DNA of 48,785 nucleotides from a virus (lineage: Duplodnaviria; Caudoviricetes), in the IMG/VR virus record IMGVR_UViG_3300025853_000005, positions 1-48,785 of that record; one strand, 5' to 3'. The notes under the pieces were generated by a model. It searched no databases and was not told where the DNA came from. It saw only the letters and a program-made list of their open reading frames with translations. Positions 6,438 to 44,466 of the stretch are shown here, one piece after another; positions within the stretch are counted from its first letter, which is position 1, and each line of letters opens with the position of its first letter. The position numbers and the translations under genes were made by a program.

Positions 6438-6794
6438 ATGACAAGGTACGGAAGTGAATACGATGGAAGCGATCACGGGCAATGGGACGGCACAAATGAG
6501 GCTTGTTCATTCTGCGATGATAGCGATTGCGTTGAATATAACGGTGACTGGATGTGTCTCTCATGCCTAGAGAATATGTTTTACAACGAAATCGAGGAAA
6601 TCGCGGAGGGATACCTTTCAGAAAAGAACGGCTGTGTTGAGGCAATCGAAAACGCGATGGGTTGGATGCAGGTCGAGCTGATCGAATCTCCCAAGCATTG
6701 CGATTTTATCGGGTTCAAACTCGTTTTCCAAGATGACGAGCGAGAAACACTTGTGAGAGAATTGGAAAGCTACAAAAACAAGGAGTACAAATAA
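6438..6794 (+). CDS. acidic hypothetical protein with CxxC pairs
   Basis: CSFC...CLSC; AAGGAG RBS. Confidence 0.75.
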   Translation: MTRYGSEYDGSDHGQWDGTNEACSFCDDSDCVEYNGDWMCLSCLENMFYNEIEEIAEGYLSEKNGCVEAIENAMGWMQVELIESPKHCDFIGFKLVFQDDERETLVRELESYKNKEYK

Positions 6795-7480
6795 TGGTTA
6801 AATACTATCACGACATGATTCAAGGCGGTGATGATTGGTATAAAATCCGCCTTGGGTTGGTTACAGCATCGGAAATCAATATTCTTTTGACTCCATCCGG
6901 GAAACTGGCGAAAAATCAGAAGATGCGCGACCATGCTTGCGAGATTGCAAGTCAGCGCGAACTAAACGAGGTTGAGGACTCATTCCAAAGCTATCATATG
7001 GTGCGCGGACATATTCAAGAGGCGATTGCGCGGGATATTTACAGCGACAACTTCGATGATGTGCAGGAGTGCGGGTTTATCACGGATGATAGCCTTGGTT
7101 TTAAAATCGGTTGCTCTCCTGATGGGTTGGTTGGTGAAAATGGCATGATTGAGATTAAATCACGCATAGCAAAGCATCAAGTCAGTACAATTATCAAAGG
7201 TGAGGTGCCTGAAGAGTACGTGAACCAAATTCAGGCGGCATTATTCATCTCGGATCGGTCTTGGTGTGATTTTGTCCAGTATTCAAACGGGATGCCGCTA
7301 TTTGTTCAGCGCGTTCGGATTGACGGCGAAAGACAGGAGCTAATAATCGAGGCAATTCGTGCTTTTGAGCTTGAAGTTGAGCGGATTAGAGAGGACTATC
7401 GGAAGAAATCAAGTATTCTCGTTCAATGCGAACGGGTGGATATGTCAGAAGATGACGAAATAAGCGAATCAAAGGAGTAA
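6794..7480 (+). CDS. YqaJ/lambda-exonuclease family recombination nuclease
   Basis: QGGDDWYKIRLGLVTAS, GCSPDGL, IEIK, YVNQIQ, WCDFV motifs. Confidence 0.92.
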   Translation: MVKYYHDMIQGGDDWYKIRLGLVTASEINILLTPSGKLAKNQKMRDHACEIASQRELNEVEDSFQSYHMVRGHIQEAIARDIYSDNFDDVQECGFITDDSLGFKIGCSPDGLVGENGMIEIKSRIAKHQVSTIIKGEVPEEYVNQIQAALFISDRSWCDFVQYSNGMPLFVQRVRIDGERQELIIEAIRAFELEVERIREDYRKKSSILVQCERVDMSEDDEISESKE

Positions 7481-7481
7481 T

Positions 7482-8063
7482 ATGACAGACATTAGCCAGA
7501 CAGTAGTGCCGAAGAGTGACCAGATGAACGCTGACGACCTGATTGGAGGGTCGATCACCGTCAAGGTGAGCAAAGTTACCGTGAACGCATCGGATCAGCC
7601 TGTAAGCGTCCATTATGAGGGCGGAGATGGGCGACCTTTCAAACCTTGCAAGTCAATGCGCCGTGTTTTGATTCTCGCGTGGGGTTCAGATGGCGACAAT
7701 TACGTTGGGCGGTCAATGACGCTGTTCAATGATCCAAAGGTTAAATGGGCGGGGTCGGAGATTGGAGGTATCCGAATCAGCCACATGAGCCACATTGAAA
7801 GCAAGTTACGGATGATGTTGACCGAAACGCGAGGCAAGAAAGCACCATTCACAGTTGAACCGCTTGTAATTGAGGCGGGTAACGCGATGACAGACGATCA
7901 ATTCGCGGATTTCAATACGGCAATCAGTGACGCGGCAACAATGCCAGAGCTTCAGCTAGTCGGGCAGATGATTAAAGACGGGAAGTTTGATGACGTTGGA
8001 ACCAAGCGAATCAAATCGGTGTACTCGAAAGCGATGAAGGCGATGCGAGCGGACATAGACTAA
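7482..8063 (+). CDS. conserved phage protein; putative ssDNA-annealing/binding partner of the exonuclease
   Basis: PKSDQMNADDL...KPCKSMRRVL...GGIRISHMSH; function inferred from position. Confidence 0.6.
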   Translation: MTDISQTVVPKSDQMNADDLIGGSITVKVSKVTVNASDQPVSVHYEGGDGRPFKPCKSMRRVLILAWGSDGDNYVGRSMTLFNDPKVKWAGSEIGGIRISHMSHIESKLRMMLTETRGKKAPFTVEPLVIEAGNAMTDDQFADFNTAISDAATMPELQLVGQMIKDGKFDDVGTKRIKSVYSKAMKAMRADID

Positions 8064-15071: not shown

Positions 15072-15614
15072 ATGCCAGCAAAAAGACCCAACGAAGTATT
15101 AGAAGACCACGGTGATTGGTTGTTAGTTGATATCTCAACGCCTAAGTTTCCAACGGCCACGATGGCGGTTGATTCCGATGTGTTTAACAAGCATAAAACG
15201 GGCAGACTAACGGCGGTTAGAAAGAATGATCGCAAATCAATGTATGTTCATTACTCAATTAACCACAAAACATACCAGTTCCATAGTGATATCTTAGATA
15301 CCCCAGATGGGATGCAGATTGACCACAAAGAGCACCACAGCAACGACTATGTTGATAATCGTAGAAGCAATCTTCGTATTGTGACCCCCCGCCAAAACAT
15401 GCTTAATCAGGGTTTGATTTCAACCAACAAGAGTGGCGTTACTGGCGTTTATCGCAACAACCGAAACTCTAAGTGGGTTGCTCAGATCAACGTAAACGGG
15501 AAAACGAAACACATTGGAGTGTTTGAAGAGTTAGAGGACGCAAAAGAAGCTAGACATCATGCGGAACAGGAATACTACGGCGAGTACGCCTACAAGGGAG
15601 GAATCCAATGCTAA
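15072..15614 (+). CDS. HNH-AP2 homing endonuclease
   Basis: IDHKEH...DNRRSNLR; SGVTGVY...WVAQI...HIGVF. Confidence 0.9.
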   Translation: MPAKRPNEVLEDHGDWLLVDISTPKFPTATMAVDSDVFNKHKTGRLTAVRKNDRKSMYVHYSINHKTYQFHSDILDTPDGMQIDHKEHHSNDYVDNRRSNLRIVTPRQNMLNQGLISTNKSGVTGVYRNNRNSKWVAQINVNGKTKHIGVFEELEDAKEARHHAEQEYYGEYAYKGGIQC

Positions 15615-15739
15615 CGATGGCTGTGATGATATGGGCGAGGAAGACGGGGGTGGTGATTGACGGAATGGCGAGCGTTTTAGTTGCCGACTGCATCCTCGCT
15701 TGGATTGTGATGAGCGGGTTGGTGAAGATATTCGGGTAA
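15608..15739 (+). CDS. small hydrophobic protein (43 aa; not in ORF track)
   Basis: GGAGG RBS; MLTMAVMIWARKTGVVIDGMASVLVADCILAWIVMSGLVKIFG*; its TAA is part of attC site A. Confidence 0.6.
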   Translation: MLTMAVMIWARKTGVVIDGMASVLVADCILAWIVMSGLVKIFG

Positions 15740-15789
15740 CGACTAAAATGAGCGGTGGCGAAGCCATACGTTCTATTGACTGGTTAGAA
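15734..15789 (-). other. attC-like site A
   Basis: + strand GGGTAAC-GACTAA-AATGAGCG-GTGGC GAA GCCAT-A-CGTTC[T]ATT-GACTG-GTTAGAA. Confidence 0.8.
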
Positions 15790-15801
15790 ATGGAGAAAAT
15801 T

Positions 15802-15987
15802 ATGGATGAACAACTGATTGAAGAATTGAACAACGCTCTGGCCGTTCTGTGGAAGGCTGGCCGGAAAACTGAAACTCTGGTTGATATTAAACAGCTTGAG
15901 AAATCGGCACTGCTTGCGCTCTCGATGGGGTTTAATGCGGAGAGTGACGACGGGATTGATTATGATGCCGCTTATTTCAATTTCTAA
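15802..15987 (+). CDS. cassette 1 hypothetical protein (61 aa)
   Basis: GGAG RBS at 15792; stop TAA inside the core of site B. Confidence 0.7.
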   Translation: MDEQLIEELNNALAVLWKAGRKTETLVDIKQLEKSALLALSMGFNAESDDGIDYDAAYFNF

Positions 15988-16038
15988 CGACTAAAATGAG
16001 CGGGCGTTTTAACGCTACGCTCTATTGACTGGTTAGGA
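15982..16038 (-). other. attC-like site B
   Basis: + strand TTCTAAC-GACTAA-AATGAGCG-GGCGTTTTAACGCTA-CGCTC[T]ATT-GACTG-GTTAGGA; arms near-identical to site A. Confidence 0.85.
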
Positions 16039-16063
16039 TGGCGAAAGAAACTAAAGGAGTATT

Positions 16064-16303
16064 ATGGCACATCACAAACTAAAGATTGCACAACCATACA
16101 TGGATGCCAAGGAGTGCGGAGACAAACCCTTTGAGGTTAGATTTGACGACCGAGGCTTTCAAAAGGGAGACACTATCACCTACACAAAGGATAGTGCTCC
16201 GTTTTTTGAATATGATGGCATTTACGAAATTACCTATGTGACTGGATTCGCTCAAAAACCTGATTGGGTTGTATTTGGTGACAAGATTAAAAAGCCATCC
16301 TAA
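16064..16303 (+). CDS. cassette 2: DUF3850 / ASCH-PUA domain protein
   Basis: HKLKI...GDKPFEVRFDDRGFQKGD...EITYVT...WVVFG. Confidence 0.85.
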   Translation: MAHHKLKIAQPYMDAKECGDKPFEVRFDDRGFQKGDTITYTKDSAPFFEYDGIYEITYVTGFAQKPDWVVFGDKIKKPS

Positions 16304-16384
16304 CGCCTAACATGACTTTCGGTGCGGTCAACCTCGACTACCGCTCCGGACGTTTTCACCGTAAAGTCGATGGACTGGTTATGT
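16298..16384 (-). other. attC-like site C
   Basis: + strand TCCTAAC-GCCTAA-CATGACTTT-CGGTG...CACCG[T]AAAGTC[G]ATG-GACTG-GTTATGT; canonical extrahelical G and T. Confidence 0.9.
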
Positions 16385-16401
16385 GAACATTGGAGAACCA
16401 A

Positions 16402-16623
16402 ATGACTAAGATTGATCTGTTAAATATGATGAAGAAATTCACCGTTGATTACCGCGAAAGCGCAAACACTTCGATTAAGCGAAACAACCACATGAACAAC
16501 GCAACGGGAGCTGAAATTGCACAGGAAGACGTTGACGCTCTTCTCGTTGATTTCATCAATTACGTTGGAGTCAAGCAAGGCGTTGATTATGCGCTATACG
16601 CTTCGGATTTAAAATCCACATAA
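16402..16623 (+). CDS. cassette 3 hypothetical protein (73 aa)
   Basis: GGAG RBS; RNNHMN...DALLVDFINYVG...GVDYALY; stop inside the core of site D. Confidence 0.8.
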   Translation: MTKIDLLNMMKKFTVDYRESANTSIKRNNHMNNATGAEIAQEDVDALLVDFINYVGVKQGVDYALYASDLKST

Positions 16624-16670
16624 CACTTAGATCACCTGCCCGAAGGGTCTGGTGCATCGCATGGTTGGAA
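16618..16670 (-). other. attC-like site D
   Basis: + strand ACATAAC-ACTTA-GATCACC-TG-CCC GAA GGG[T]CT-GGTG[C]ATC-GCATG-GTTGGAA. Confidence 0.85.
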
Positions 16671-16685
16671 AATTAAGGAGATGGT

Positions 16686-16859
16686 ATGAACTTCAACGAG
16701 TTAATGAGAGTTGTGCGCAAGACGAACCCGCAGATGGAATCCGGTCGGGTGTCGATGAGTGCGGAGAACTTCGAGAAGGCGATGCGATTCGCGTTTGAGA
16801 AGGGGGAGTCGGCGGGGCGCGGTCTTGAGATGTTCAACGGGTTGTTTGGAGGCGGGTGA
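16686..16859 (+). CDS. hypothetical protein (57 aa; not in ORF track)
   Basis: AAGGAG RBS; MNFNELMRVV...GLFGGG*. Confidence 0.6.
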   Translation: MNFNELMRVVRKTNPQMESGRVSMSAENFEKAMRFAFEKGESAGRGLEMFNGLFGGG

Positions 16860-17035
16860 TGAGCAACGAATACAAAGATTGGATGCGGGAGAATCGGCAA
16901 GACGCGCTCTTGATCATTGACAAGTTGGATGATGTGATTGATTCGCTCGATGAATTGCGGAGTTACGATTGCTCGCAACAGATAATCATGCAGTTGATGA
17001 TAGCGCGGGAAGCGTTGAGGGAGGAGTCGAAATGA
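16859..17035 (+). CDS. hypothetical protein (58 aa; not in ORF track)
   Basis: GGAGG RBS, TGATG overlap; MSNEYKDWMRE... Confidence 0.6.
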   Translation: MSNEYKDWMRENRQDALLIIDKLDDVIDSLDELRSYDCSQQIIMQLMIAREALREESK

Positions 17036-17178
17036 TTAGCGTAATTGTTAATGGTGAGTGGTTGGAAATCCGGCACATCGATGTCGAGGGCAAGACTATG
17101 GTTGTGAGGAGCGTAAAGATTTAGCGGAATGAACCGCTGATAGAAAATAAAGGAGTCCTAAAAGACTGTTTTACTGTG

Positions 17179-17216
17179 AACCCCGCCACTCTTAGCAGAA
17201 CATGGCGGGGTTTTTT
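17179..17216 (+). terminator. rho-independent terminator
   Basis: CCCCGCCA...TGGCGGGG stem followed by a T run. Confidence 0.8.
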
Positions 17217-17379: not shown

Positions 17380-17501
17380 ACGTGGAGATTCAAAAAAAAA
17401 ACGTTCGTTAGATGGACTGAATAATAAATTTTAGCACACCTTGATTCGACTAATCTAACTAGTCGGGTTGAGGTGTTGTTATTTACAGGAGTTAGATTCC
17501 T

Positions 17502-18233
17502 ATGAGTAAAAGAAAAACGCACGAAGAGTTTGTTTCAGAAATAGGTAATAGGCCAATAAGGGTTTTGAACAAATATATAAACTCAAATACAAAGTTAGAA
17601 TTCCAGTGTGAGATTTGCGGTGCGAAATGGAAGGCCGTTCCGTTCAGCGTGTCACAAGGAAGCGGGTGCCCTCCATGCGGGAGAAAGAATGGATGGGGAA
17701 AGTTAGAAAAAACAAATGATATAATTGAGGATCATGGTGATTGGTTGCTAATTGATATTTCAACAGACAAGCATAAGAACTCTTCCATGGCAGTAGATAC
17801 CGATGTGTGGGATAATTACAATAGTGGCAGAGTATATGCCATAAAATATGCAAAAGATAAATACATATACGCAAAGTATTCTGAAAAAAGAAAGCCAAAA
17901 AGTTTTCACCATGTAGTTATAGATAAGGTTGATGGGGTTTTAATTGACCATATAATCCATGGAGACTCATCTTTTATTGACAACAGGCGTAGTAATTTAA
18001 GATACGCAACAAATTCTCAGAACACAATGAATCAGAGTTTAAAAAGAACAAATAATAGCGGAAAGACGGGTGTTCACTTTAATAAAAGAAGGGATAAATG
18101 GGTGTCAACAATATATATTAATGGTAAGCTAAATCACTTGGGATATTTCGACAACATAGATATAGCCATCGGTGTCCGTCAACAGGCTGAACGCGAGCAC
18201 TTCGGTGAGTACGCTTACGATTCCCATAACTAA
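17502..18233 (+). CDS. HNH-AP2 homing endonuclease with N-terminal Zn-ribbon
   Basis: CEICG...GCPPCG; IDH...DNRRSNLR; SGKTGVH...HLGYF. Confidence 0.9.
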   Translation: MSKRKTHEEFVSEIGNRPIRVLNKYINSNTKLEFQCEICGAKWKAVPFSVSQGSGCPPCGRKNGWGKLEKTNDIIEDHGDWLLIDISTDKHKNSSMAVDTDVWDNYNSGRVYAIKYAKDKYIYAKYSEKRKPKSFHHVVIDKVDGVLIDHIIHGDSSFIDNRRSNLRYATNSQNTMNQSLKRTNNSGKTGVHFNKRRDKWVSTIYINGKLNHLGYFDNIDIAIGVRQQAEREHFGEYAYDSHN

Positions 18234-18319
18234 TCGGATGTTTTTTGTACCGAACGGACATAATGTTACCAGAAGCACCGGATGTGGATGCAATTTGTAC
18301 CGAGCGGGATAAGAAGCCA

Positions 18320-26488: not shown

Positions 26489-29400
26489 TTATTTGTCGTA
26501 AACCCCGATTGATAGTCCCAATCCCTCGCCAATTGCTAGTGCCGCTGTTGTTGGAATTGTCTCACCTTCCTTGTATGCTTCAGCCGCAGATTGAATAATG
26601 AGCGGGATGAAATTCTCCACAACACTTCTAACCTCTTCTGGCAGAACAGTATCGCCCAATTCTATCGGTTGAACCTCGCGACCAACAATATCCTTACCAG
26701 TGATTAGCTCTATAGCAAGCAAAGCAGGAGGTGCTAATTTGTACTTCAGGAAACTACCGATGTCACTAAGCGGGTCAATATCAGTCTCTCCGGTCGTCGT
26801 CTTCTCGTAGATACCCTTGATTGTTTTCGCAAGAATCCGCATTGGTTGCTGAACACCACCCCAAATATCAATTCGCTTATTTCCTTGAATGATAATCTTG
26901 CCAAAATCGGAGTCGTCTGGGTCTAATCCAACCTCAGCACCTGCCGCCACCGCCATTCCCATAATCGCCATGCCAGTTCCGAGAAGCGCACCCCATTGTC
27001 TCGCCATCTCTCCGCGTAATTCAGGCTGTTGAACCGCGTTTTTGACCGCCATATACGGGGCTTGAACGCGAGATAATGCGAATCGCGGTGCAAAAAATAC
27101 TAGCGAGAGTTCTTCAGCCGCCCCGCTAAGATTACCAAGATCACCGCGACCCGTTGCAATATTTACATACTTTGCGTAAGCCTTCTTTGCTTCATCAGAT
27201 GCGTCAGGATGCTTTGTAAGGAAGTCGGACATCAATCCGGTGCGCAACATATTTAGTCCCGTAACCATATTACGCTCTGATGCCATTACAACCTTACCAA
27301 ATCCCGGTATCTTCTCGGCAAGGTTCGATGCAAAGAACTCCTCACGCTTTGAGATTGCGGAGTCAATGTTCGATAGATGCAGTCCATACTTGTCGAACTC
27401 AGCTTTTTGCGGGTGATTCTTAATGTCCAAGTCAGCCGCATCAGCTTTATTCTGCGAGAAGGTTGCTTGAAACGCCTTCCCCCATGCCTTCCCCGCAATG
27501 ACCGGATGTCCTAGTGACGGGAGCAATCCTTGACGAAGACCGTATGACATATCCATTGTGGCGAGCATTGAGCGGGGAAGTGTTATAACTTCTTTTGCCA
27601 AATCACGCATTGTTCTTGGGCGCAACTCATGGATATTATTCCGCGCCTCGCGCTGTAATTGGTGCAGTTTAATCCGCGCATCAGCCAATTCTTTACTCTT
27701 AACGGTTGCCTTTTCCTTGCTCGTAATCTTGTAGTTGCCCGTCCGAATCTGCTCCTCAAGGTCAGCGATTTTGTCCAACGTATCTCTCGTACTAATCACC
27801 TCGGACAAGTCTTTTTTGAACTCAGCAACCCTAGCACCGCGTTGTTTCACAGGAATCGGGAGGTTTCTGTACCCCTTGTCAATCTGATCCTTGACTTTCG
27901 TGATAGACTTCTGTAAATCAACGATTACCTGCGCGTCAACCTTTCCGCCACCAATCATTCCCTTGGTTCTCAGTGCAATTTCCTCTTTCAAGAATTTGAT
28001 TTGCGCTGATAAATCGTCTAATGCGGGTGATTTCGAGTTCTGAATCTTTGGTTTCGTGTAATCTCCGGTGCGAATCTGCTGTTCCAAGTCAGCGATTGTG
28101 TCTAGTCCCTTCACGCGAGCGAGTAGCTTCTTAATCTCAAGGTTAGCGGACTTAATTAACTCCGATTCCTTGCGCTTGCTCGGCTTCACATCGCGGTACA
28201 ATCCGTCAATCTGCCGTTTCAACTCACCGATTCGCTTCATCTTCTCGGCATAAACCGTTTCGTCAGTCTCGGTCACGCGGTATGCGGACTCAAGCAGACC
28301 AAGTTTGCGTTTCAATTCGGTAACCTCACCTGATGTTGGTTCGGTCTTACGCTTCGGGTCGAACACGCGATTGAATGCGTCCTCAAGCTGACCGGACAAC
28401 TTCGCTTGCTTGATGATTTCAGCCTTGCGCTTCATCGTGTCCGTCTTGGCTCGCTTCTCAAACTTCTGTACGCGCCCACCAATCGAATCCCAGATGTTCT
28501 TGTCGCTCAGGTCAGGGAGATCGCTCTTAACTAGCGCAGTGACCTCTTTAAGCGTCTGTGCGCCATCCTCAATGTAGTTCGCCGCCAATTTGGATATAAG
28601 ACGCGCTGACTCAATCGTAACGCCTGTGATGTCGTTTACGCGGTATCCGAGAGCTTGCAACTCATCCTTGATTGCTTGGCGGTCTGTCTTAATATCTTCT
28701 TTCTTGCGAGTCTTCCGAGTCTTGCGAGCCTTTTCAATCGCGGCATCAGCGAAGTCACGCGCTTGAAGGTCTGTGATTTCTTTCTCAAGTTCCGCAATCT
28801 TTTTAGTTTGCGCCTCAATCTCGTTGCCCAAGTTCGTTAAATTCTGCTGTTCTTCGGCAGTCAACTTCTTACCCTTTGATGCTTTTGCTCTACGAATCAA
28901 ACTCGTCAACTCGTAACTATCCAGTGCAATTCTCAGCTTGCGAATCTGTAGCGCACGACCCGCTTCGGTTTTCGAGAGGTCAGCCGCGTAGGTCAGATTG
29001 TCCATCGCCTTATCGAGTCCGTCGAGTTTGGCTTGGTTCGCCGATGTATCTTGCCCTGCATCAACTTGCGCGTTTATTTCATTGAGAAGTTTCTTCATCT
29101 CGTTGCTGATTTGACCCGCACGAACAACCATTCCCGCGTGTTCTTCCGGTGTCACAACTCTTGGCTTTTTAAGCACTTCAGCCGCAACCGTTTCTGCGTT
29201 TCTGTCTGCACCCGATTTCTTTGCGTTCTCAAGCGTGTCGATATTCTTCTGCGCTTCTTGAGGATTCAGACCCTCGAAATCCATGTCATCACGGATTGTT
29301 GCGATGTCATCACCGACTAGCGACATGGTTTTCTTTGGCGGAACAACCTTCTCAGCAACAGGTTTCGCTTTCTTCGGAGCCACCTTCTCCGCCCCGTCCT

Positions 29401-31567
29401 TCTGCGCGGGCTGGGCGGGTTGCTTGGCAGGGGTGGTAACTTTTCTTGCAACAACATTCCCACCGTTGTCTACCCAGACAGGATCAGCAAATCTTGCTTG
29501 ATTTTCATTAAATATAACATAATTGAGAATACCATCATTAAGTTCAATCTCTATTCCATCATGGCCTATTTCAGTAATGTAAGTTTTCCATTCCACATAA
29601 TCGGCTGTCTCAAGATCACCAATATCTTTTCCGGCATACTCTGACACAACCTCAGCAATAGCCCTAGATGGGTCTGATGAATCATACTGTAGTTTTATTG
29701 GATTCTCAACTTTTGCATTAATAGCTAATACAGAACCTAATCCACCACTAGGCCCCGCATATCTTTCGGCTTGTTCGTAATCTGTAGTTAAAAAAGCTCC
29801 CAGAATAGTATCTTTAGCATCAGTCTCGTTTCCCGCTCTTGAAAAATCAAATTCAGTCATACCTCTATTACCACCATGATAGAGGTCTTTATTGTATCCT
29901 AGCTTTCTAAGACTTTCCCTAACATCTTCTTCCGCAGTATTATACTTGTCTAAATTTTTATCAATCCAGACGTTATCGAAATATTTCCATTTTTCATATT
30001 TTCCTTTAACATCTGATAGTTCTGATTTTAGATTTTCAGAAAGATTCTCTATATTAACATTACCCCCTACTTCACCGTTCGCGCCTTCACCTGACTCTTG
30101 TACGCCATCGGCTTCTGCCGGGACACCCCTAGTATCTTCGACGGTTGCTTGCTCGCCTTCTTGCTCTGTTTCAATCTCATCTGCCCGCTGTGTGGTGTCT
30201 GCATCTTGTGCCTCCTGTTTCTCTTTAATCCGCTGACGAATCTCATGCGCGGTCAGTGCATCAACCTCGCCAAGAATCCCCTCTAACTTCTCTAAATCCG
30301 CTTCTGATAGTTTTTCTTGTTGCAAAATCTCATTCGCGGTCGCCTCCTCCATTGCCATGCCAATCGAATCGCCACCTGTCTTATTCCGGTCAAGAACTTC
30401 CTTGATGTCCTTGTCAATCTCGTTATGCTCATCATCGGTCTTTGCTTCTTGCGATCTGGCAATCAACGCATCCGCTTCCTGCTCTGTCGCTCCCGATGCC
30501 ATCAACCCTTTCTTAACCCGGTCTGTTCGTTTCGCATTGACCATCATGCCAGAAATCGACGTTCCCCCATCGAAAAATGCGCCAAGAATCATCGCCTCCG
30601 CAATACCATTACCAAGACTCGCATCCATCCCCACCATTTGGTCAAGTGCGTTCTCGCCAAGTTGCGCAGTTCCCTCAGACACCGAGCCGACGAGCATATC
30701 CTTGCCAAAATCAGCAACTCGTTTTGCCGCACCCTTCTTAATTTTTCCCGCTAAAACCTTGTCTATCACGCGACCTGTACCCATCGCCTCGGAAAGAACT
30801 TCAACGGCTCCTGTCGCAGTCGCGTTGGTTAATCGTTGCTTTTCTGACAACCCCTCGTCTGCCAAAGCGCCATACTTCGTTCCTGCCGCGCTTGTTCCCA
30901 TAAACCCAAGACTTCCGCCCTTGCTAATGAACGCCATTGCAATCTGCATTGTAAGGCGTGGAACCTCAAACATTGCCATCTCAACGATTTTCTCCACAGC
31001 ATCACCCGCTCTGCCCTCTTTGATAAGTTGGACTATCGGTTCTTTTTGCTCAGTGACGCGCTCTCGAATCCTCTCAGACTTCTTGATCCGGTCGACCGCG
31101 AACTTCTCAATAATGTCTCCGGTCTTGCCGAATCCAATTGGCTCGCCCTTCTCCGTCAACTGAACACGACCGTCTTGCATTAAACCATCGGGTGAGATTT
31201 GCTGTGGCCCTGACATTTGTAGCGACTTCATTGCCATCTCAGGTAGCAACGCCAATCCGCCAATCAAGTCAAGGGATGTCATCTCCGTGGATGCCGCGAA
31301 CTTTGTCCCCCAAGGAACGTTACCCTCAATCGGTGGCTCATCGCCCTGAATCCACTCCTGATATTTGCTTAGTGGAGCAGTTGGCTCTTGCTCTACTTGC
31401 TCCTGACTCTGAATAATCCCACCGAACTCATCAGTCTGTTGCGATTGCACAATGCCACCGAACTCATCGGTTTGCGCTTCTTGCGGTTGGACAAAAGTAT
31501 CTACAGCCCCCGCTAAATCATCAGTAGGACTTTCTTGGATTACACCGCCAAATTCATCAAGTGCCAT
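26489..31567 (-). CDS. large internal virion/DNA-ejection (polyvalent-type) protein with ART-like domain
   Basis: 1692 aa, mostly helical/coiled-coil; DEFGG x3 at N-terminus; YHG...GAFLT...NP...GHDG...YVIF ART-like motifs; position after tail genes. Confidence 0.75.
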   Translation of the reverse strand: MALDEFGGVIQESPTDDLAGAVDTFVQPQEAQTDEFGGIVQSQQTDEFGGIIQSQEQVEQEPTAPLSKYQEWIQGDEPPIEGNVPWGTKFAASTEMTSLDLIGGLALLPEMAMKSLQMSGPQQISPDGLMQDGRVQLTEKGEPIGFGKTGDIIEKFAVDRIKKSERIRERVTEQKEPIVQLIKEGRAGDAVEKIVEMAMFEVPRLTMQIAMAFISKGGSLGFMGTSAAGTKYGALADEGLSEKQRLTNATATGAVEVLSEAMGTGRVIDKVLAGKIKKGAAKRVADFGKDMLVGSVSEGTAQLGENALDQMVGMDASLGNGIAEAMILGAFFDGGTSISGMMVNAKRTDRVKKGLMASGATEQEADALIARSQEAKTDDEHNEIDKDIKEVLDRNKTGGDSIGMAMEEATANEILQQEKLSEADLEKLEGILGEVDALTAHEIRQRIKEKQEAQDADTTQRADEIETEQEGEQATVEDTRGVPAEADGVQESGEGANGEVGGNVNIENLSENLKSELSDVKGKYEKWKYFDNVWIDKNLDKYNTAEEDVRESLRKLGYNKDLYHGGNRGMTEFDFSRAGNETDAKDTILGAFLTTDYEQAERYAGPSGGLGSVLAINAKVENPIKLQYDSSDPSRAIAEVVSEYAGKDIGDLETADYVEWKTYITEIGHDGIEIELNDGILNYVIFNENQARFADPVWVDNGGNVVARKVTTPAKQPAQPAQKDGAEKVAPKKAKPVAEKVVPPKKTMSLVGDDIATIRDDMDFEGLNPQEAQKNIDTLENAKKSGADRNAETVAAEVLKKPRVVTPEEHAGMVVRAGQISNEMKKLLNEINAQVDAGQDTSANQAKLDGLDKAMDNLTYAADLSKTEAGRALQIRKLRIALDSYELTSLIRRAKASKGKKLTAEEQQNLTNLGNEIEAQTKKIAELEKEITDLQARDFADAAIEKARKTRKTRKKEDIKTDRQAIKDELQALGYRVNDITGVTIESARLISKLAANYIEDGAQTLKEVTALVKSDLPDLSDKNIWDSIGGRVQKFEKRAKTDTMKRKAEIIKQAKLSGQLEDAFNRVFDPKRKTEPTSGEVTELKRKLGLLESAYRVTETDETVYAEKMKRIGELKRQIDGLYRDVKPSKRKESELIKSANLEIKKLLARVKGLDTIADLEQQIRTGDYTKPKIQNSKSPALDDLSAQIKFLKEEIALRTKGMIGGGKVDAQVIVDLQKSITKVKDQIDKGYRNLPIPVKQRGARVAEFKKDLSEVISTRDTLDKIADLEEQIRTGNYKITSKEKATVKSKELADARIKLHQLQREARNNIHELRPRTMRDLAKEVITLPRSMLATMDMSYGLRQGLLPSLGHPVIAGKAWGKAFQATFSQNKADAADLDIKNHPQKAEFDKYGLHLSNIDSAISKREEFFASNLAEKIPGFGKVVMASERNMVTGLNMLRTGLMSDFLTKHPDASDEAKKAYAKYVNIATGRGDLGNLSGAAEELSLVFFAPRFALSRVQAPYMAVKNAVQQPELRGEMARQWGALLGTGMAIMGMAVAAGAEVGLDPDDSDFGKIIIQGNKRIDIWGGVQQPMRILAKTIKGIYEKTTTGETDIDPLSDIGSFLKYKLAPPALLAIELITGKDIVGREVQPIELGDTVLPEEVRSVVENFIPLIIQSAAEAYKEGETIPTTAALAIGEGLGLSIGVYDK

Positions 31568-43908: not shown

Positions 43909-44466
43909 TTAATCTCCGTCAGTCACGAACTCAATCGCGCTTTCTTTTAAGCAATACTCTTTCGAGTACAAAATTCTCTGAAGATCGTCGGATGATTCCG
44001 GTGCAACGCAGAACTTCCCTATGTCTTCCTTCGTTAGATGCTCGCAGTCGTCCGCCACATCCAATATCTCCACCCAATTCGTGTTCTCTAAGAAGCCGTC
44101 CGTCATGTGAAGAACAACCTCGCCTTTTTGGTCGCATACATGGTCGTTCTGGCACTTCAAAACTTTAACGAATTTGTTGACGGGAGAGAACTGGTCATCC
44201 TTTTCTTTTGCGTAAAGGACGCTATCCTTGACAACCGCGAACTCACTCCCGCCAACATTATAATCCACCACCCCGTAATGGGGTATTAACAATCGGTCGC
44301 CCGATGTTACAAATTTGTCACTTCCTGAGCTATGAACTGCGCCCCTATAGCTCTTAACCTGAGCGCCGTCACTAATCTCAATATCATTGTGCGTCTTCTC
44401 TTGGGCATCCCTCTTAATGAACACCCAGTTTCCAACAGCTTTTAAATTGTTTCCTTCCATCGCCAT
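43909..44466 (-). CDS. tandem GroES/Cpn10-like co-chaperonin
   Basis: LKAVGNWVFIKRD...GDRLLIPHY...FAVVKDSVLYA, then a second unit FSPVNKFVKV...YCLKESAI. Confidence 0.7.
   Translation of the reverse strand: MAMEGNNLKAVGNWVFIKRDAQEKTHNDIEISDGAQVKSYRGAVHSSGSDKFVTSGDRLLIPHYGVVDYNVGGSEFAVVKDSVLYAKEKDDQFSPVNKFVKVLKCQNDHVCDQKGEVVLHMTDGFLENTNWVEILDVADDCEHLTKEDIGKFCVAPESSDDLQRILYSKEYCLKESAIEFVTDGD

Follow-up and report, generated by a model that had tools for sequence, protein, structure and literature searches.

Clusters of attC sites without an integrase, known as CALINs, are defined as at least two same-strand attC sites lying within 4 kb, with no intI in the vicinity (PMC4889954). Qi et al. (2023) report 17 CALINs among 10,705 phage genomes, and IntI1 recombined five of the six sites that were tested (PMC9892861). 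The sequence-only reading of the locus described here held such arrays to be rarely described in phages; since integrase-less attC clusters have been published and assayed with IntI1, the presence of an array is in itself already known. The published CALINs of virulent phages, among them those of Tetrasphaera phage TJE1, Pseudoalteromonas phage PH101 as well as Polaribacter phage P12002L, resemble our array in being short, in combining single ORFs with attC sites of similar size, in lacking intI and in carrying methyltransferase genes, which are found here in the relatives L140, L143 and L144 (PMC9892861). Both TJE1 cassettes carry their genes on the attC top strand, whereas all genes of our array lie on the bottom strand; no array was seen in the first 50 kb of the 132-kb PH101 genome. 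The text of Qi et al. speaks neither of phage-to-phage cassette exchange nor of antisense polarity (PMC9892861), although their Figure 2 and Dryad files may show inverted genes. Searches of the openly accessible literature, including the available text of PMC8876359, PMC8352920 and bioRxiv 10.1101/2024.07.02.601686, likewise turned up no account of phage cassettes that are systematically antisense, nor of cassettes being exchanged between phages.

Integron cassettes, whose attC sites IntI recombines on the folded bottom strand, share with our locus the AAC and GTT cores, the unpaired central spacer, the extrahelical bases opposite AAC, the L boxes, the variable terminal structure and the complementary ends in the circular form (PMC5027507, PMC5371416). 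Unlike integron cassettes, the units described here have the hairpin before the gene rather than behind it, and a T or C is frequently found as the first bulged base. At 56 and 53 nt, sites 1 and 4 fall at or under the reported attC range of 57–141 bp (PMC5371416). In contrast to a complete integron, the array has no intI. No attI (searched without a model) or Pc was recognised. Integrons are viewed as bacterial devices, and genes against phages make up many of the chromosomal cassettes (bioRxiv 10.1101/2024.07.02.601686). In the present case it seems to be a phage that diversifies its accessory genes through the same recombination sites. The most distinctive feature of the array is its inverted polarity, and there is good population evidence of cassette-wise exchange.

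The window, by which we mean the whole analysed stretch of 48,785 nt, is the complete circular genome, with a terminal repeat, of an uncultured phage. Among its 66 scanned ORFs, an early and replication module runs left to right and encodes a YqaJ-type exonuclease, a replication initiator, a primase, a DnaB-like helicase and a metallophosphoesterase, and a structural module with capsid and terminase runs right to left. The attC-type array is situated where the early module ends (Table 1). Its lack of an integrase, as first reported, is borne out: a six-frame search of the complete record gave no match to the tyrosine recombinase family PF00589, for which a control was positive in 14 of 14 genomes, and none of the 66 ORFs matched an integrase or resolvase family. 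With four same-strand sites in 0.94 kb and no PF00589 match, the array is a real CALIN and so belongs to a known kind of locus, with a layout that departs from the canonical order of gene and then attC. We consider it likely that this is an integrase-less attC-type cassette array in a phage early region, with genes antisense to the canonical top strand, and that its units are moved by a host IntI acting in trans.

Table 1. Sites, cassettes and ORFs of the array (coordinates of the window; CM, covariance model)
Feature	Coordinates	Strand	Remarks
attC-type site 1	15734..15789	minus is the canonical top strand, plus the bottom strand predicted to recombine	5/6-nt spacers; bulged T and one G:T wobble on plus; CM 12.5 bits, E 0.56
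attC-type site 2	15982..16038	minus	5/6-nt spacers; bulged T on plus; CM 25.8 bits
attC-type site 3	16298..16384	minus	5/6-nt spacers; bulged G and T on plus; branched terminal structure; CM 25.9 bits
attC-type site 4	16618..16670	minus	5/5-nt spacers; bulged C on plus; CM 38.5 bits
Cassette 1	15740..15987	minus	248 bp; site 1 hairpin and ORF1; ends complementary over 9 bp
Cassette 2	15988..16303	minus	316 bp; site 2 hairpin and ORF2; ends complementary over 11 bp
Cassette 3	16304..16623	minus	320 bp; site 3 hairpin and ORF3; ends complementary over 8 bp
Upstream ORF, 43 aa	15608..15739	plus	stop codon provides the AAC where the array begins; same junction in L136
ORF1, 61 aa	15802..15987	plus	SD-like motif right behind hairpin; TAA stop overlaps next AAC; no Pfam or PHROG family
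ORF2, 79 aa	16064..16303	plus	DUF3850 (PHROG 986, annotated RNA-binding); TAA stop overlaps next AAC
ORF3, 73 aa	16402..16623	plus	widespread family without a name
ORF4, 57 aa	16686..16859	plus	behind site 4; first gene past the closed cassettes

All four sites have AAC and GTT cores as inverted repeats (AAC-to-GTT spans 15738-15785, 15986-16034, 16302-16380 and 16622-16666), L boxes paired over 3 bp plus 4–5 of 5 bp, and spacers that, read on the minus strand, have the lengths given in Table 1. An extrahelical base opposite AAC lies on the plus strand in every case; the first bulged base is T, T, G and C in sites 1 to 4, so that the usual G occurs in site 3 only. The cores, the 5–6-nt spacers and the paired L boxes with a bulge described from the letters alone are thus present at each of the four palindromes. 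The plus strand has a purine fraction of 0.46–0.56, an absent or slight excess, and its fold is more stable than that of the minus strand in three of the four sites. A first extrahelical G and a purine-rich, more stable bottom strand are typical of attC sites without being absolute; on these three points the data speak against a clean strand assignment. Folding of each strand, suggested earlier as a check, gave modest z-scores, and sites 1 (−0.75/−1.76, plus/minus) and 4 (−0.76/+0.11) are not separated from shuffled sequence.

A scan for this geometry (AAC, 5-nt spacer, 3 bp, one extra base, 4–5 bp, 5–6-nt spacer, GTT) returned eight sites in the window, four of them on the same strand within 1.5 kb. 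The four scattered matches elsewhere were treated as chance. In 300 block-wise dinucleotide shuffles, the mean was 1.3 sites and the largest same-strand cluster was two (6 of 300), never three or four. A covariance model was built independently from 14 sites of other contigs, none of which matches the window-derived pattern and three of which come from TJE1. This model ranked the four sites as the top four of 11 matches, all on the minus strand, and returned exactly the coordinates of the four palindromes as first read from the sequence; site 1 is not significant on its own by this measure. Other weak matches in the window (E > 2) were treated as chance.

The hairpins are intergenic and stand directly before ribosome-binding sites, and one terminator-like match falls inside site 1. 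These features would also suit RNA elements, such as terminators or sites of processing or translation control, whose likeness to attC is incidental. We regard this reading as scarcely credible: Rfam gave no match in the window at gathering score, terminator-like matches occur at chance level (2 vs 2.3), and both the complementary ends across each gene and the swaps at AAC described below would be left unexplained. Sigma-70-like promoters are likewise at chance level (5 vs 4.7 expected).

Bulged bases on the arm opposite AAC define the bottom strand that is recombined (PMC5027507). The canonical attC geometry fits the minus strand in all four sites and on the plus strand in none, and all ORFs are on the plus strand. 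Since the top strand of the sites is minus and the ORFs are plus, the unit consists of hairpin, gene and stop, in reversal of the usual gene-then-attC order. The canonical cassette, in which a gene on the top strand is followed by its attC, is therefore not what is found: the genes lie on the bottom strand behind their hairpin. The attC-type sites, AA^C boundaries and missing integrase of the sequence-only reading all hold, and it left the antisense polarity unstated, though its positions imply it.

The same polarity prevails in the related family, where the longest ORF is on the bottom strand in 28 of 33 cassettes and the stop falls on AAC in 16 of 33. In a stricter test of 39 distinct sites, an SD-plus-ATG gene leaves on the bottom strand at 34 and a canonical top-strand gene at one. 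At eight of the 39 sites (L135:487-589, L140:575-673, L141:2042-2404, L143, L148), the terminal loop of the hairpin contains both the ribosome-binding site and the start codon, and the gene runs through one arm. Beyond the family, in seven other viral contigs whose attC types differ, the longer of the ORFs is antisense in 18 of 21 cassettes, three of these by thin margins. The sense cassettes of TJE1 (two of two) indicate that inversion is not obligatory in phages.

Inverted polarity means that the unit is read by the left-to-right transcription of the phage and would not be expressed if placed behind the promoter that drives cassettes in a host integron, and that an ordinary host cassette entering the array would face backwards. 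Our preferred guess for the reason is an expression barrier between phage and host pools; the inverted layout would keep phage and host expression apart. Alternatively, inversion may help the coding strand to fold: were replication to proceed in the direction of transcription, the recombining strand would be the lagging template, a position that favours folding (PMC5371416).

The three cassette lengths first proposed are correct. Each ORF has an SD-like motif 16–29 nt after the hairpin and ends in a TAA stop that overlaps the AAC of the next site. Complementarity between the two ends, claimed for all three cassettes, was found in each, with cassette 2 pairing over 11 bp rather than 10; the other 13 of 16 end pairings reach 3–5 bp. 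Site 4 has no complementary far end and site 1 no upstream partner within 12–20 kb. In the related family, 18 of 29 distinct cassettes have ends that pair over 7 bp or more; when ends were mismatched, 37 of 810 did so.

A mechanism for the movement of these units can be proposed, in which we infer the enzyme, the host and the excision step. The coding strand, being the recombining bottom strand, would fold when single-stranded during phage replication. A host IntI would then cut in trans at AA^C just past the TAA stop of each gene, and the unit of hairpin, ribosome-binding site, gene and stop would be excised as a circle. The circle could enter another attC or a secondary AAC site. Insertion by IntI at secondary GWT sites (attG) has been demonstrated (bioRxiv 10.1101/2022.09.11.507474); it resembles the present case in that our arrays start at an ordinary gene end with AAC, a candidate for such a site, and differs in that it concerns bacterial chromosomes and canonical cassettes. 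The AAC of the upstream ORF may accordingly be the anchor or the secondary insertion site of the array. No excision joint or cassette-skipping joint was found in eight runs, all represented by contigs, which drop rare forms.

Relatives were sought with an arm pattern, which gave 21 metagenome loci; 13 related contigs were used and, with the window, hold 47 sites. Six loci without a hairpin (L131, L132, L138, L147, L149, L150) were treated as chance, L134 was left out because it duplicates the window, and L137 was left out because its left core is decayed and leaves no site. A loose pattern returned 119 viral loci, most of them without attC geometry. The related loci were found by window-derived patterns and the sites by our own scanner, so the counts given here for the family, and those for the other viral contigs and phage records, are not those of an unbiased survey.

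Comparison of these contigs shows that the hairpin travels with the gene behind it and that the breaks fall at AAC. Across the 47 sites, four pairs share hairpin and following gene and differ in the sequence before AAC, and eight pairs, at five distinct junctions, share the preceding gene and differ in hairpin and following gene. Four further pairs are identical and two do not fit: L146 and L151 have the upstream gene and hairpin in common and differ downstream, and the second misfit pair has only a related following gene in common. L139 and L142, with flanks 97.4% and 99.0% identical, differ by one AAC-bounded cassette of 248 vs 232 bp. L139 holds cassette 1 of the window in another context (248 bp, 87.5% identical), identity falling to 40% over the 40 nt that precede AAC. 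One of the five distinct junctions, site 2 of the window against L139, joins similar hairpins, so that a crossover cannot be placed there. In several swaps, one gene end is joined to wholly unlike hairpins (24–51% identical) at 0–5 bases from AAC.

Contigs of the sequencing runs tell of the same boundaries. Matches run from AAC to GTT with foreign flanks at 15738-15787 (X9) and 16302-16380 (X16), and one X9 contig starts at the AAC of site 4. Contigs of X13, X19 and X21 break at AAC or a few bases away, and X19 joins site 4 to another upstream sequence. The site 3 hairpin type occurs with other flanks in L140, L141, G003 and run X16. Cassettes 2 and 3 were not found whole elsewhere. A short repeat at 18236-18307, present twice after the HNH gene, resembles a sequence joined to site 4 at AAC in run X19, which may be a secondary insertion site. 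A mere pair of copies is close to what chance would give (5 of 100 shuffles).

Exchange of this sort could also come about if the hairpins were relics of past insertion that now serve as shared homology for the exonuclease and annealing recombination of the phage itself, with no integrase acting today. The phage does encode a YqaJ/lambda-type exonuclease (6794-7480), an SSB-like protein and an ERCC4 nuclease, and near-identical 48-nt hairpins of the site 1 type stand before many different genes in other contigs. The L146/L151 pair and a difference between the L139 and L142 copies of one cassette, located in the spacer next to AAC, suggest that some crossovers fell inside near-identical hairpins, as such homology would allow. 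The few bases that unlike hairpins share at such junctions are too little for homologous recombination, and swaps between unlike hairpins therefore argue for site-specific over homologous exchange. Bulge, spacers and L-box pairing are moreover kept, with compensatory changes in eight of 16 pairs, a count biased by the choice of sites for pairing. No annealing protein was recognised in the phage, the product of 7482-8063 having no solved relative. Taken as a whole, we think the relic reading unlikely; exchange of cassettes would give phages a site-specific route to mosaicism.

If the exchange is site-specific, the recombinase might be one other than IntI. A different tyrosine recombinase, from the host or a helper element, could prefer the mirror layout, in which case the genes would be normally oriented for it, or the pool would be separate from ordinary integrons. 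Non-G bulges do dominate, the first bulged base being G in eight of 39 family hairpins, and a 7-nt spacer lies beside the crossover core in 14 of 39 hairpins, against the usual 5–6 nt (family sites in L133, L135, L140-L148). The breakpoints nevertheless fall at AAC opposite the bulged arm, as predicted from IntI chemistry, and no recombinase lies near any array examined. L145 speaks against such an enzyme too, since it mixes one antisense cassette with top-strand cassettes of equal site polarity. We judge this reading quite unlikely and continue to prefer a host IntI. L145 itself is 1.4 kb long without intI and carries the antisense cassette, which has a site-1-type hairpin, beside two top-strand genes, one of them CPBP-like; possibly it comes from a bacterial array. 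The end of the antisense cassette recurs in the first 54 nt of L145:1-292, so that the cassette has its own circle junction there, either a tandem copy or an excised circle. L137, when flipped, has at about 560-990 a decayed site-1-type hairpin and gene, followed by several tRNA-like genes on the opposite strand.

The cargo bears on where the cassettes come from. ORF3 belongs to a family with 416 representatives at E up to 0.001, and its homologs in the other viral contigs (four of four) stand in plain rows of phage genes without attC sites. The cargo of relatives includes methyltransferases, DUF551 and PHROGs 12958, 3472 and 14788, and PADLOC gave no match for nine cargo proteins. Inverted cassettes with DNA methyltransferase genes are present in L143:1621-2409, L140:906-1715, L144:298-1005 and G005; TJE1 has one such gene as a sense cassette. 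A blastn search of window positions 15072-17200 against 50,697 phage records gave three short matches, none spanning the sites as a unit, and a search of viral contigs with the flanking metallophosphoesterase and ORF2 recovered a near-identical contig only.

The array might instead have been captured from the chromosomal integron of a bacterium, to be passively carried, with genes that are antisense by chance. Phages with captured parts of chromosomal integrons have been published (PMC9892861), and L145 suggests that such cassettes also occur among cassettes of bacterial type. We hold this to be very improbable: the cargo belongs to phage families (DUF3850, DUF551, PHROG methyltransferases and the PHROGs named above), the homologs of ORF3 stand among ordinary phage genes, and close relatives differ cassette by cassette in order and content. 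The single-cassette swaps already weaken the idea of passive carriage.

Phages with little else in common also carry sites of this kind. Five further phage records have family-like sites and almost no protein in common with the window (five tblastn segments); none has a PF00589 match, three are at least 90% complete, and of the 17 sites flagged in them, 15 point against the strand that is coding locally. We tentatively suggest that unrelated phages of one host group maintain a mirror-polarity pool of their own on the host integrase. Cassettes of phage genes would then be silent in host integrons and expressed only in phage arrays, and the anti-phage cassettes of the host would be kept unexpressed in the phage. 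If so, phage genes with and without a hairpin would make the creation of cassettes directly traceable; families in which the same gene occurs with and without attC are in any case natural before-and-after pairs for cassette genesis. A scan of GTDB with the pattern returned one locus, with sense genes and no IntI over the cut-off in that genome; the array pattern was absent from 101 genomes of the phylum of that locus, in a scan run without a positive control. Look-ups with terminase, tail protein and cluster gave no indication of the host.

The window has five HNH genes (668, 2441, 15072, 17502 and 25898). In a 97% identical relative (L136:1108-1629, flipped), another endonuclease-like gene replaces the HNH gene upstream of the array (window 15072-15614). 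A 17-pair hairpin at 17436-17476, without attC likeness, lies directly before the HNH gene at 17502. Elsewhere in the window, a GroES-like gene (43909-44466) adjoins the terminase, and 26489-31567 encodes a protein of 1692 aa, with an ART-PolyVal domain, to which a relative in G004 is 60% identical.
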